From positions 1 through 5,860 of the IMG/VR virus record IMGVR_UViG_3300045988_062519: 5,860 nucleotides of DNA. One strand, written 5' to 3'. Source of the DNA: a virus. The translations under genes were made by a program, and so were the position numbers. The notes beneath the pieces were generated by a model. That model searched no databases, was not told the DNA's origin, and worked only from the letters and a program-made list of their open reading frames with translations. Within the stretch, counting starts at the first letter, position 1. Each line of letters opens with the position of its first letter. Shown here in pieces: positions 2,072-4,516 of this stretch.

Positions 2072-2187
2072 AGTCGAGTTCCTCCCCTCATCGGCTTACT
2101 CTTTACGTTGATTTTTTTTGTTTTGGTCGCTGTTTTGTTGTAGATTTTGGCGTCTTTGCCTTTATTTGTTCGCGTTCTGTGTGCCAT
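2068..2187 (-). CDS. 39-aa highly basic protein, candidate ssDNA-binding/packaging protein (phiX174 J / gokushovirus VP8-ORF8 analogue)
   Basis: Not in the track because it is too short. ATG at 2187-2185 is preceded by TAAGGAGGA (10-nt spacer). Translation: MAHRTRTNKGKDAKIYNKTATKTKKINVKSKPMRGGTRL. It has 13 K/R against one D. Its stop TGA overlaps the GTG of the next gene (GTGA). It overlaps the 3' end of the 87-aa ORF by 26 nt in another frame. Confidence 0.65.
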   Translation of the reverse strand: MAHRTRTNKGKDAKIYNKTATKTKKINVKSKPMRGGTRL

Positions 2188-2425
2188 CTGTATATATCCT
2201 CCTTAGTAGTTCTAGATATTCTCTCCTTAGTAGTTCTTGTTGAATGTCGTGTGCTATTGCTTTCATGTTCCAGATGCTATCTATCATTTTTTTTGCATCT
2301 TCTATGTTGCTTAGTCTTTTAAGCAATTTGTAGTTTTTTTCAATATCTTTGTATAGTTTTCCTGCCTTTTGTTGAAGTTCTTCTTCGGTCTGGTCTCTTA
2401 CGTTCCAACTTTTATGAAGACTCAT
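2162..2425 (-). CDS. Hypothetical 87-aa helical/coiled-coil-like protein
   Basis: ATG at 2425 with SD AAAGGAG 8 nt upstream. It is tightly packed between neighbouring genes on the same strand. The sequence is charged and heptad-like: EEELQQKAGKLYKDIEKNYKLLKRL...QQELLRREYLELLRRIY. I recognise no domain. Confidence 0.6.
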   Translation of the reverse strand: MSLHKSWNVRDQTEEELQQKAGKLYKDIEKNYKLLKRLSNIEDAKKMIDSIWNMKAIAHDIQQELLRREYLELLRRIYTDGTQNANK

Positions 2426-2430
2426 TGTCG

Positions 2431-2544
2431 TTACTCCTTTACTTCGGTGTTGATGACTGCGTGATAGATTTTGTCCAGCATTTCCAGAATCTGCATCATG
2501 ATGCGGATTGCCTCCTTGACGTCTTTAATGCTGATAAGCGCCAT
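2431..2544 (-). CDS. Hypothetical 37-aa protein
   Basis: Not in the track. ATG at 2544-2542 lies 4 nt after the peptidase stop, with AAAGGGGGTG upstream. Translation: MALISIKDVKEAIRIMMQILEMLDKIYHAVINTEVKE (amphipathic-helix-like). Its stop TAA is 5 nt before the next ATG. It fills an otherwise unexplained gap in a very compact genome. Confidence 0.4.
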   Translation of the reverse strand: MALISIKDVKEAIRIMMQILEMLDKIYHAVINTEVKE

Positions 2545-2547
2545 TTT

Positions 2548-2940
2548 TTACACCCCCTTTCTGTATTTCGTTTGGCGTGTGTCGATGTGTACCCAGTTGT
2601 CGTATACTATGATTCCGCAACTGTTTGGCACGATTTTGTCGAGCACTTTTGCCAGCTCTTTTGGGCTTACTCCGTTTGCTCTAATGTCAGCTGCCATACC
2701 TCTTGTATGGTAGCTGTACTTTGCACCGCCGACTTTTGCGTTGTGGCTTACTGTGCGGTATCCGCTTGTGATTATAATCGGTTTTTTCATTTTGTTCCTT
2801 GCGATATCAAGGAGTTCTACTAACCAGCCGTCAACAAATACGATTGGTGTATTATCTTTACAGGCAAATTCTTTTACTTTGAAATGACTTGCAATATTTT
2901 CGTTTCCTTGCGTTTCCATTACATATGATTTGATTTCCAT
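2548..2940 (-). CDS. Zinc metallopeptidase, M15 family (Peptidase_M15_3 / YcbK-like fold), endolysin-like cell-wall peptidase (130 aa)
   Basis: This is the distal part of the 181-aa track ORF. I place the start at MEIKSYVMETQ (ATG 2940) with SD AAAGGAG 10 nt upstream. Catalytic signature: IIITSGYRTVSHNAKVGGAKYSYHTRGMAADI (SGYR, then H-x6-D) followed by NWVHID (the third Zn ligand, His). There is no signal peptide or TM segment, and no separate wall-binding domain. Confidence 0.88.
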   Translation of the reverse strand: MEIKSYVMETQGNENIASHFKVKEFACKDNTPIVFVDGWLVELLDIARNKMKKPIIITSGYRTVSHNAKVGGAKYSYHTRGMAADIRANGVSPKELAKVLDKIVPNSCGIIVYDNWVHIDTRQTKYRKGV

Positions 2941-3059
2941 TTTTTGCTTTCTCCTTTCATGTCTTTGACCATTTGTACCATGAGGATTATAAGTGATGCT
3001 GTTGCTGCTGTCATTCCGATTATTGCGATTATGATTCCGACTGCTGCAAGTGTTTCCAT
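2919..3059 (-). CDS. 46-aa single-pass membrane protein, holin-like
   Basis: Not in the track. ATG at 3059-3057 with SD AAGAGGT 7 nt upstream. Translation: METLAAVGIIIAIIGMTAATASLIILMVQMVKDMKGESKKWKSNHM. It has one hydrophobic segment of ~24 residues followed by a charged, lysine-rich tail. It is the first gene after the promoter and overlaps the peptidase start by 22 nt. It competes with the low-complexity N-terminal extension of the 181-aa ORF, which lacks an SD. Confidence 0.6.
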   Translation of the reverse strand: METLAAVGIIIAIIGMTAATASLIILMVQMVKDMKGESKKWKSNHM

Positions 3060-3095
3060 GTTCTTTACCTCTTTTCTGCTCTGCATTTATCATGC

Positions 3096-3133
3096 ATTAT
3101 AAGTATTATATGCCTTGTTATGTCTTTTTTCAA
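3096..3133 (-). promoter_or_regulatory. Sigma-70/sigmaA-type promoter driving the lysis/structural operon
   Basis: Minus strand reads TTGAAA (3133-3128), a 17-nt spacer, then TATAAT (3110-3105). A second TATAAT sits 3 nt downstream (3101-3096). The element is ~40-50 nt upstream of the first ATG (3059). Confidence 0.6.
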
Positions 3134-3158: not shown

Positions 3159-3209
3159 ACTATGCAAACTGGCAAGGTTGCTGAAAGCAATTTTGCCAGT
3201 TTGCATAGT
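3159..3209. repeat. Large inverted repeat / hairpin (17-bp perfect stem, 2-nt mismatch, 4-bp stem, 5-nt loop)
   Basis: actatgcaaactggcaa (3159-3175) is the exact reverse complement of ttgccagtttgcatagt (3193-3209). The inner pair ttgc/gcaa (3178-3181 and 3187-3190) encloses the loop tgaaa. Confidence 0.85.
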
Positions 3210-3247
3210 TGCCCGCGGCAGGCGTTTTTAATAGTTTCCACATAGTT

Positions 3248-3330
3248 TTCAACAATTCAACATTGTTAAATTTTATCACAATAGAGTCTTTCAACAATTT
3301 AACAAGTTTTCAACAATTCTTTCAACATTG
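3248..3330. repeat. Iteron-like array: five direct copies of TTCAACA(A/T)T(T/G)
   Basis: TTCAACAATT occurs at 3248, 3290 and 3309. TTCAACATTG occurs at 3256 and 3321. On the coding strand each copy reads (A/C)A(A/T)TGTTGAA. Confidence 0.8.
3270..3297 (-). promoter_or_regulatory. Possible second promoter with extended -10, overlapping one repeat copy
   Basis: Minus strand reads TTGTTG (3297-3292), a 16-nt spacer, then TAAAAT (3275-3270), preceded by TGA (the TGnTAAAAT extended -10 form). Confidence 0.3.
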
Positions 3331-3442
3331 TTTTTTGCTTCTTTTTTACGATGTTACGTTAAAAATAATATGTTTTCCACTTTTCCACAGTCCCTACTAC
3401 TACGACTACAACAAGCAATAATATAAGCAATTATATCAAATA

Positions 3443-3473
3443 AGCCCAGTACCTACTTGATAGGTACTGGGCT
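3443..3473 (-). terminator. 13-bp perfect stem / 5-nt loop hairpin 20 nt after the VP4 stop; candidate end-of-operon terminator
   Basis: agcccagtaccta (3443-3455), loop cttga, taggtactgggct (3461-3473). On the coding strand it is followed by TATTTGATAT, a moderate U-tract. Confidence 0.5.
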
Positions 3474-3493
3474 AGGTGACACCATAGCATGAA

Positions 3494-4516
3494 TTATAGC
3501 TTTCCTGATTTGTGCATCTTCTTTTTTGTTATTCTTTCTTTTGTTTGTAATTCTGTTGCGTAGTCAATCCCTTCATATGTGTATCGGTTCGATTCAATTA
3601 TTTTGGCTTGTCGTTCTTTTTTAATTTCCCATAGTTTTTGTGGGTTTTCTTGTTCCATCATTTTTTCGTAGAATCTTGGGATTTTTGCTCTTTTTCCGTT
3701 TGTGCATTGGATATAGCCTTTTTCCCAGATTTCTTTTTTGTGTTCTTCGTACCATTTGTCACCGATTCCCGGTTTAAGTGACATTTTCGCGAATGGCTTT
3801 GTTTGGCCTAGTTCATAGTAACTGTTTGCTTTTTTTTCGTCTATTTCATACATTTTTTTTGTAACGTATCCTGCTACATATCTGTAGGTTTCCGGCACTG
3901 CTTGGGCTATTTGGATTTGACCCATTTTCCACAGATCTACTAGTGTTTTGCTTGTAAAGTATCCGTTGCATCTTTTTTTGTAAATTGGTTCTAGATCTGT
4001 TGGTTTCCATCCATATAAAATTAGGTGATAGTGTGGTCTTGCTGTTTTTTCTCCGTATTCACCCGCGCAGAAGTATCTTATCTCGTTTCCTGTGGCCTTT
4101 CTCAGCCTTTTTAAAAATTTTTGAATATCCGTATAGAGCAAGATTTGGACGCTTTCTGGACGTTCTGCGCCCGGTCTCCACGTGTATTTTACTTTTCGCA
4201 GTATTTCCCCTGTTTTGATTATCATTCCCGGTACGTGTTCATCGTCATAAGTTAGTGTTACAAACCATACTTGATTCTTCGGATACATTCTCGCTTCCAT
4301 TTCAATTCTTGTCGTCCAGTCCTCACGTTGTGCTATTCTGCATCCTATGCATTGTCCACATGGGATTAACATGACGTCTTTTCTGTACATTAGGTCTTCG
4401 TATCTCAGGTTTTTGTGTGCCCTTTCTTTACAAAAACGCGAGAGAGTATAAACTCTCCCGCTGATTTCTTTGTTTTCAGGGCAGTAAAACCGGATAAGTG
4501 GTTTACTGCATCCCAT
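3494..4516 (-). CDS. VP4: Replication initiation protein VP4 (HUH rolling-circle endonuclease, phiX174 A homologue), 340 aa
   Basis: CGQCIGCR zinc-finger-like motif; FVTLTYDDEH (motif 1); RPHYHLILYG (HUH motif); YVAGYVTKKM (the Y-x3-Y catalytic tyrosine pair, as in phiX174 A). SD GGGGAG lies 7 nt upstream. The start overlaps the VP2 stop (TAATG). Confidence 0.95.
   Translation of the reverse strand: MGCSKPLIRFYCPENKEISGRVYTLSRFCKERAHKNLRYEDLMYRKDVMLIPCGQCIGCRIAQREDWTTRIEMEARMYPKNQVWFVTLTYDDEHVPGMIIKTGEILRKVKYTWRPGAERPESVQILLYTDIQKFLKRLRKATGNEIRYFCAGEYGEKTARPHYHLILYGWKPTDLEPIYKKRCNGYFTSKTLVDLWKMGQIQIAQAVPETYRYVAGYVTKKMYEIDEKKANSYYELGQTKPFAKMSLKPGIGDKWYEEHKKEIWEKGYIQCTNGKRAKIPRFYEKMMEQENPQKLWEIKKERQAKIIESNRYTYEGIDYATELQTKERITKKKMHKSGKL

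Follow-up and report, generated by a model that had tools for sequence, protein, structure and literature searches.

The window considered here is the whole 5,860-nt stretch of the IMG/VR virus record IMGVR_UViG_3300045988_062519, which represents the complete 5741-nt circular genome of a small gut phage with single-stranded DNA (terminal redundancy, 119 nt). Its gene content identifies it as a gokushovirus, and every gene lies on the minus strand. Between VP4 and VP5 lies a pair of overlapping genes, one encoding a single-pass membrane protein of 46 amino acids (aa), here designated TM46, and the other a 130-aa peptidase of the M15 family (Table 1). An initial annotation, made from the sequence of the window, had interpreted this pair as a lysis cassette. 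Three elements of that interpretation, namely the M15 enzyme, the membrane protein and the layout of the two genes, are retained after comparison with related genomes, but the dedicated partnership between the two proteins is not. Sequence comparison shows that two accessory genes, each mobile independently of the other, were joined by recombination to form a mosaic locus. The same genome was assembled independently from a second sample (L033; 99.9% identical to the window, with five single-nucleotide polymorphisms (SNPs) in total), and the window genome is therefore no assembly artefact. Throughout, L-numbers denote the genomes or contigs that were compared and P-numbers denote homologous proteins.

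The peptidase and TM46 genes

The peptidase scores 79.5 bits with the Pfam family PF08291 (Peptidase_M15_3; E=2.5e-22; cut-off 23.2), the match covering positions 2 to 108 of the 108-position profile. It also matches PHROG 894 'endolysin' (E=1e-38), and it contains the motifs SGYR (residues 59-62), H78-x6-D85 and VHID (residues 117-120), in agreement with the M15 assignment of the initial annotation. In alignments A1 (10 sequences, which take in enzymes of double-stranded DNA (dsDNA) phages) and A3 (17 sequences), residues H78, D85, H118 and D120 do not vary. A sequence match was also obtained to 1LBU, the Zn DD-peptidase of Streptomyces, with the zinc ligands aligning to the HxxxxxxD of 1LBU. 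An AlphaFold2 model built from alignment A3 has a mean predicted local distance difference test score of 72 and a predicted template-modelling score of 0.70, and its top Foldseek matches are 1LBU (E=7.7e-4), hedgehog N-domains, LysECD7, the RB49/T5 endolysins and VanY/VanXY, with template-modelling scores of only ~0.4-0.5. Orthology to MepK was considered and rejected, the score against NF053624 (peptidoglycan L,D-endopeptidase) being 44.3 bits with an equivalog cut-off of 185, and the enzyme is related to MepK only. No hydrophobic N-terminus or signal-anchor-release helix was found in the peptidase; the maximum Kyte-Doolittle mean over 19 residues (KD19) is 0.87 for the whole protein and the first 30 residues are hydrophilic, which upholds the earlier observation that there is no export signal. 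The protein is an M15 enzyme of the phage-endolysin type with a probable LAS fold, and most likely acts in lysis by cleaving peptidoglycan.

At E<=1e-10 the window peptidase has more than 1000 database matches. The best 120 homologues are at least 65% identical and are encoded mostly on 5-6-kb contigs, and the 'peptidase M15' of GenBank KX513868 is 77.7% identical. The nearest homologues that do not come from microviruses are Faecalibacterium phage endolysins (46% identity), and cellular and (pro)phage homologues, at most 50% identical, are nearly all from Clostridia. The presence of M15_3 genes in 11 human-associated Microviridae was reported by Roux et al. 2012 (PMC3394797), who argued for horizontal acquisition, proposed an endolysin role and noted an affinity of the gokushovirus copies to Faecalibacterium. 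Peptidases are also listed among the lysis-associated accessory genes exchanged by recombination (Kirchberger et al. 2022, PMC9239249), and M15 peptidases are present in the marine Occultatumvirinae. The peptidase is thus already known and is not new to gut gokushoviruses, and the remark in the initial annotation that open reading frames (ORFs) of M15 type had been noted in Microviridae was correct (Roux et al. 2012; KX513868).

A 37-aa ORF (MALISIKDVKEAIRIMMQILEMLDKIYHAVINTEVKE; window 2431-2544, minus strand) starts 4 nt past the peptidase stop, with its Shine-Dalgarno sequence (SD; GGGGG) within the last peptidase codons. The predicted product is strongly amphipathic (hydrophobic moment 0.69) and almost never annotated. 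The ORF is found at 59-100% identity in 52 of the 53 peptidase-positive genomes surveyed and in 31 GenBank gokushovirus records. It was considered as the real partner of the peptidase and rejected, since it is also present in the peptidase-less genomes L121 and L122 and is hence a backbone gene.

The TM46 protein carries no charge from residue 3 to residue 31, where the maximum KD19 of 2.50 fits one transmembrane (TM) helix, and the C-terminal tail of 19 residues contains five lysines and two acidic residues. The tail is basic, and the protein is predicted to lie N-out/C-in. Along one face of the helix, small residues form a conserved ladder (G8-A12-G15-A19). The protein contains no proline, and the gene occupies an intergenic slot of its own and is not overprinted within another gene.

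Searches for relatives of TM46 gave no match in Pfam, PHROG or NCBIfam, none by tblastn against 50,697 phage records, none in IMG/VR with back-translated patterns, and none in a word-indexed set of 5.8 billion proteins queried with a single 55-aa sequence. A HMMER scan of 1.84 billion representative proteins recovered two homologues (E=5e-8 and 6e-7) and none outside the TM46 family. Further members were obtained by a profile search, which together with the scan gave homologues P0001-P0005, and by a degenerate DNA pattern against metagenome contigs, and a divergent 39-aa member, in L139, was recovered from a survey of relatives. All members found sit on gokushovirus contigs, and every full-length copy has exactly 46 codons without indels. 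The 55-aa form would begin at an upstream in-frame ATG at 3086, which has no SD and is not conserved. As regards a dual-start (holin/antiholin) motif, the upstream in-frame starts vary among family members (ATG in L037, TTG in L039 and none in L041). Homologues align from residue 10 of the 55-aa form onwards, in support of the 46-aa start.

The ratio of nonsynonymous to synonymous substitution rates (dN/dS) for TM46 is 0.18-0.29 in within-clade pairs with dS >0.29, and 0.4-0.7 for the window compared with the clade in which the other copies reside (the TM46 clade). TM46 is a real gene under purifying selection that encodes a selected single-pass membrane protein and represents a new, undescribed family, found only in gokushoviruses. 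The 46-aa protein of the initial annotation, with one TM segment and a lysine-rich tail, is accordingly a conserved and genuine gene. In L038 (1354-1356) and L042 (2239-2241) ATA replaces ATG at the conserved TM46 start, and in both an in-frame upstream ATG is followed by a frame running through a poly-T tract (FFFF...); these copies may use a non-ATG start or encode a longer product.

The overlap of the two genes (2919-2940, 22 nt), their separate SDs and their position directly after a promoter-like site are all present in the sequence as initially described. Promoter-like sites numbered six in the scanned region, compared with 4.0+/-2.1 in shuffles, and the site upstream of TM46 is homologous to the promoter of L011 that directly precedes the peptidase. 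An SD homologous to that of TM46 is present ahead of the gene in L037, L038 and L039, and the junction of the peptidase SD with ATGGAAATC is also present in relatives that lack TM46. The strong SDs would fit a Bacillota host, and Clostridia are the candidate hosts. Two of the five SNPs that separate the window from L033 fall within the TM46 signals, one at 3130 in the -35 element (TTGAAA to TTGGAA) and the other, G3069 to A, in the SD (GAGG to GAAG), and both weaken the respective signal in L033. This post hoc observation suggests tuning of the expression (dosage) of the TM46-peptidase unit.

Distribution and recombinant origin of the two genes

The peptidase was surveyed in ~74 distinct gokushovirus contigs, in which it is 60-85% identical to that of the window. 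No TM46 homologue was found in any of these contigs. The 46-aa ORF is therefore not conserved in relatives carrying the peptidase, an outcome that the initial annotation had named as refuting its interpretation. Moreover, a scan of all stop-to-stop coding-strand frames (threshold KD19 >= 1.7) detected no other strong TM ORF in the ~74 contigs, apart from the N-terminus of VP2 and an ORF that overlaps VP4 at its end. Some peptidases in the databases have long N-termini (P0008, P0037, P0038 and others); these were considered as hidden TM46 genomes and discarded, their extensions being unrelated read-through. The 5.2-kb contig L020, which has a multi-TM ORF downstream, was considered as a microvirus and excluded, its flanking genes matching dsDNA phage contigs.

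The peptidase is absent, in turn, from all seven other TM46 lineages (L037, L038, L039/L040, L041, L042, L127 and L139). The gene order in these lineages is VP4, the intergenic region, TM46 and a gene for a 39-aa basic protein, with VP5, VP3, VP1 and VP2 coming next in the longer contigs. TM46 overlaps the gene for the 39-aa protein by the same 22 nt, indicating that this coupling belongs to the TM46 cassette and not to the peptidase. TM46 and the peptidase occur together in one lineage only, comprising the window and L033, and genomes with neither gene are present in both clades (L121, L122 and L131). Going by these distributions, TM46 is not the dedicated partner of the peptidase and the pair is not a fixed holin-endolysin unit; the proposed two-gene arrangement is present neither in the ~74 peptidase contigs nor in the seven TM46 lineages.

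The genome L132 has a TM46-clade backbone (VP4 73% identical to that of L039) and encodes, at 3502-3861, an M15 peptidase 47% identical to that of the window, with no TM46. This shows that an M15 peptidase has independently entered the TM46 clade too.

The backbone of the window and its TM46 gene differ in their affinities. The window VP4 is 70-88% identical to that of most members of the peptidase clade, while identity to the TM46 clade is 32-40% for VP4 and 42-43% for VP1, yet 55-58% for TM46. In a three-way alignment of the window, L011 and L037, the promoter region of the window and the SD and start of its peptidase match L011, in which the peptidase comes straight after the promoter, and the ~120 nt in between, consisting of TM46 and its SD, match L037. 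In L001, L006, L010, L013, L014, L016 and L031 the slot between promoter and peptidase holds an unrelated hydrophilic ORF of 56-68 aa (MKEYKFLVRVYFKNGTKEQRTWIETTKDAKEKAKK...LYRIDQTFEF), and some relatives have nothing in this position. Occupation of the slot behind the promoter by unrelated ORFs or by nothing marks it as a cassette site or hot spot. TM46 is the first gene after the promoter in peptidase-free genomes too, and its adjacency to the peptidase is explained by insertion of the cassette into the first slot after the promoter.

In the clade from which TM46 appears to derive, the gene is found irregularly. The VP4 of L131 is 99% identical to that of L039, and TM46 is missing from L131 through a clean indel of ~115 nt, flanked by a pair of SD-like AAGGAG repeats. 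Among 22 IMG/VR relatives that have the TM46-clade backbone and cover the slot, a TM46-like ORF is present in one (L139 only). On this comparative evidence TM46 is dispensable in its native clade. In addition, because both clades include genomes without either gene, neither gene can be the core gokushovirus lysis function.

By comparison of the genomes, the peptidase, a cytoplasmic M15_3 zinc enzyme, was captured in the first place from Clostridia phages and is now widespread in one gokushovirus group. TM46 behaves as an ORF-precise cassette, overlapping the next gene by 22 nt, that usually resides in a distant, peptidase-free gokushovirus clade. In the window lineage the cassette went in between the promoter and the peptidase SD, apparently via microhomology at SD/ATGGAAA junctions.

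Three further elements of the window lie around the pair. An 87-aa ORF (2162-2425, minus strand), situated between the 37-aa and 39-aa genes, is present at 46-57% identity in most relatives and gave no family match except a sub-threshold match to YukD. A hairpin with a perfect 14-bp stem (3443-3473, minus strand; AGCCCAGTACCTAT CAA GTAGGTACTGGGCT), located ~20 nt past the VP4 stop and followed by a T-rich tail, is also kept in L004, L005, L007, L008, L011 and L018, and may serve as a terminator or as a signal for replication or packaging. The intergenic region at ~3190-3340 (minus strand) holds a TGTTGAAA-like motif in five or six copies, which are kept across the whole clade. When translated, this repeat gives a recurrent pseudo-ORF ('LLKHSVMLKFNNVEMLKT...') in many genomes, and it resembles an element acting as DNA (iterons or a promoter array) rather than a gene.

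Table 1. Positions of genes and sequence elements in the window
Feature	Position	Strand	Remarks
TM46	3059-2919	(-)	46 aa, METLAAVGIIIAIIGMTAATASLIILMVQMVKDMKGESKKWKSNHM, single-pass membrane protein
Peptidase_M15_3, 130 aa	2940-2548	(-)	zinc peptidase with probable LAS fold, no signal peptide, putative endolysin
Inserted cassette (TM46 + own SD), approximate	2958-3078	(-)	relative to peptidase-clade genomes such as L011
Promoter-like TTGAAA-17-TATAAT	3105-3133	(-)	upstream of TM46; 11/12 consensus positions; consensus match only
TM46 SD AAGAGGT	3067-3073	(-)	7 nt ahead of ATG
Second promoter-like site ATGACA-17-TATAAT	2986-3014	(-)	inside TM46, upstream of peptidase; consensus match only
Peptidase SD AAAGGAG	2951-2957	(-)	within TM46 3' end
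VP1	spans window ends	(-)	
VP2	5358-4516	(-)	
VP4/Rep	4516-3494	(-)	
Intergenic region, ~400 nt	between VP4 and TM46/peptidase ORFs		
Small ORFs of 37, 87 and 39 aa	between peptidase and VP5	(-)	
VP5	2071-1829	(-)	
VP3	2046-1378	(-)	

Possible functions of TM46

The reading tentatively favoured for the window genome is that TM46 serves as a holin-like helper for the signal-less peptidase. TM46 would oligomerise in the cytoplasmic membrane via the G8-A12-G15-A19 face and perturb or permeabilise the membrane, and the peptidase could then reach the wall, so that a holin-like helper and an endolysin would act in the same genome. Neither gene would need the other, and the core lysis mechanism would lie elsewhere. 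Functional cooperation of TM46 and the peptidase in the window genome is possible, and the support for a holin-like role is circumstantial, consisting of the holin-like architecture, the analogue in the dsDNA phage contig L019 (see below) and the SNPs at 3130 and 3069. With 46 aa, one transmembrane domain (TMD) and a charged, hydrophilic C-terminus, TM46 has the size and topology of a holin. It also adjoins an endolysin-type gene, but elsewhere it overlaps a non-lysis gene in the same way, and co-inheritance with an endolysin, as would be shown by a holin, is contradicted by the ~74 peptidase contigs and the seven TM46 lineages. The Pfam, PHROG, NCBIfam and tblastn searches described above place TM46 in no described holin family.

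Several considerations weigh against a helper role. With a strong SD and first place behind the promoter, the gene should be expressed constitutively and at a high level, which is unexpected for a lethal holin in a phage without temporal gene control. Presence or absence between near-identical genomes is typical of exclusion or defence 'moron' genes too. The adjacency of the two genes carries little functional weight, because the insertion site fully explains it, and the ~74 peptidase-only genomes evidently cope without a TM partner. Moreover, gene calling in metagenomes tends to miss small ORFs, and the distribution of the TM46 family is therefore incompletely sampled; even the 55-aa product of the window is missing from the 5.8-billion-protein index.

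A more ambitious proposal, and a rather doubtful one, is that TM46 represents a true holin of minimal size (46 aa, one TMD) and that gokushoviruses build and dismantle lysis modules by swapping SD-flanked, ORF-precise cassettes. No holin was found in Microviridae in the literature searched, and a genuine holin at this locus would be the first described in a single-stranded DNA phage.

Superinfection exclusion is a serious rival to the holin-like role, even if on balance it is unlikely. TM46 could block the pilot-protein DNA entry of competing microviruses, for example, or act as another non-lysis 'moron', with its position beside the peptidase being incidental. Such a function would be consistent with the patchy distribution of TM46, its presence and absence in near-identical genomes and its horizontal movement between distant backbones, and the early, strong expression expected from its strong SD and its place directly behind the promoter would also be appropriate. 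In gut samples, related gokushoviruses densely co-occur and recombine, conditions that would favour a gene of this kind. Nevertheless, TM46 has no similarity to known exclusion proteins in Pfam, PHROG or NCBIfam, its conserved small-residue helix face and basic tail would suit a pore-forming or lysis peptide just as well, and the only known accessory classes of microviruses are lysis enzymes and methyltransferases (PMC9239249).

It appears improbable that the genes constitute a dedicated, co-adapted holin-endolysin cassette in which TM46 is the holin needed by the peptidase and the pair is the lysis system. The adjacency of the genes, with a 22-nt overlap, separate SDs and first place after a promoter-like site, would be expected of such a cassette, as would a peptidase without an export signal, a neighbour of holin-like size and topology and the occurrence of TM proteins beside the enzyme in its dsDNA phage relatives. 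However, the ~74 peptidase contigs are without TM46 or a strong TM ORF and the other TM46 lineages are all without the peptidase. Furthermore, the 22-nt overlap follows TM46 whatever gene is next, the 39-aa basic protein being the neighbour elsewhere, the L039/L131 comparison indicates that TM46 is dispensable, and related genomes exist without both genes.

Still less credence is given to TM46 as a stand-alone lysis protein, either an amurin-like block of wall synthesis or a membrane-depolarising toxin, which would be the lysis gene of peptidase-free gokushoviruses and, in the window, redundant with the peptidase. The peptidase-free L037, L039 and L041 have no strong coding-strand TM ORF other than TM46, and the E protein of phiX174 likewise acts through a single N-terminal TMD. 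These points are offset by the persistence of L131 and 20 other clade members without a TM46-like ORF, by a TMD without proline and a gene that is not overprinted, unlike E, and by the lack of homology of TM46 to E or to known single-gene lysis proteins.

The suggestion that the true product is a 181-aa ORF (3093-2548), an N-extended peptidase, with the 46-aa ORF as an alternative-frame artefact, was rejected by comparison of homologues and has hardly any likelihood left: the peptidase frame is open across TM46 in the window, and the frame of the downstream gene is also open in the other five full-length members examined, but substitutions are mostly synonymous in the TM46 frame (dN/dS about 0.2), more than 100 peptidase homologues start M-E/x-I-K (MEIK/MxIK) with their own SD, longer database versions carry unrelated N-terminal read-through, the Pfam match starts at residue 70 of the 181-aa form, the same frame would in other lineages extend the 39-aa DNA-binding protein, and the ATG at 3093 has no SD.

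Microviruses are thought to have rigid genomes, and the locus shows gene-sized cassette exchange between gokushoviruses with VP1 only about 42% identical. What is new here is the TM46 family, its cassette-like mobility and its unique juxtaposition with the peptidase. No experimentally defined gokushovirus lysis gene was found in the literature searched. The genomes compared provide a natural genetic series, with neither gene (L121, L122 and L131), the peptidase only (~74 contigs), TM46 only (seven lineages) or both (one lineage), in which L039 and L131 are a near-isogenic TM46 plus/minus pair. Should TM46 indeed be a minimal holin, the window would represent a 'holin + endolysin' assembly made in nature, with its relatives serving as natural controls that have a single gene or no gene. 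Synthesis and rebooting of gokushovirus genomes is feasible (PMC7062461), and in combination with the natural series this makes the role of the membrane protein, the peptidase, both or neither in lysis directly testable. The locus is of value mainly because it allows gokushovirus lysis to be tested cleanly by experiment.

Comparison with known lysis systems

Within the microviruses, TM46 shares some properties with small proteins of other groups. The E protein of phiX174 is an amurin that inhibits MraY, has a single N-terminal TMD, depends on Pro21 and is encoded within gene D. Like E, TM46 is a small microvirus protein in which a single N-terminal TM helix is combined with a basic tail. It differs from E in that it has no homology to it, is not overprinted, has no proline in the TMD, is non-essential in its clade and lies beside a muralytic enzyme. 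The microvirus Ebor (Tainavirinae) encodes Gp1, a 45-aa predicted membrane protein, and Gp7, for which a zymogram verified peptidoglycan hydrolase activity (Bardy et al. 2025, PMC11980548). Ebor and the window both combine a membrane protein of ~45 aa with a wall hydrolase in one microvirus. Ebor belongs to another subfamily, Gp1 has no assigned function, and Gp1 and Gp7, which are two of 10 ORFs, are presumably not adjacent. Moreover, the best HHpred match of Gp7 is 6SSC_A, which is not among the M15/LAS structures found for the window peptidase.

The M15_3 genes of gut Gokushovirinae and Alpavirinae (PMC3394797; KX513868) belong to the same family as the window peptidase and occupy the same slot between VP4 and VP5. 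The gut gokushovirus genes also share with it their nearest relatives in cells and dsDNA phages, namely those of Faecalibacterium and other Clostridia. The difference is the membrane-protein gene ahead of the peptidase, which is present in the window lineage only; Roux et al. reported adjacent 'unknown' ORFs and no holin. In the lemur-gut microviruses Dulem viruses 189, 203, 195 and 178 the M15 peptidase is 47-49% identical to that of the window. ORFs of 35-69 aa with one strong TM segment are present in these viruses (L036 2607-2783, L222 2577-2786, L223 2593-2700 and L224 2621-2728). The Dulem TM ORF starts right behind the pilot-protein gene and apart from the peptidase, its position being conserved and its sequence divergent among the genomes compared, all of which carry the peptidase. 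Together with Ebor, these four viruses suggest that small TM ORFs may go with wall-hydrolase genes in other clades.

The holin-endolysin cassettes of dsDNA phages are similar to the window pair in that a signal-less M15_3 enzyme lies beside a small membrane protein with a charged C-tail, in overlapping frames. TM46 differs from their membrane proteins in belonging to no described holin family, in not being co-inherited with the enzyme and in being dispensable in its native clade. In the Faecalibacterium phage FP_Toutatis an M15 endolysin is accompanied by a downstream TM protein. The closest architectural analogue of the window pair is found in L019, a 38-kb dsDNA phage contig, in which a 41-aa single-TM ORF (MLTNFEIVGYALALTVGAVSILGIGAVLVICLVKKFGEDDE; 3374-3499) overlaps the start of the M15_3 homologue (3480-3842) and a multi-TM ORF follows the enzyme.

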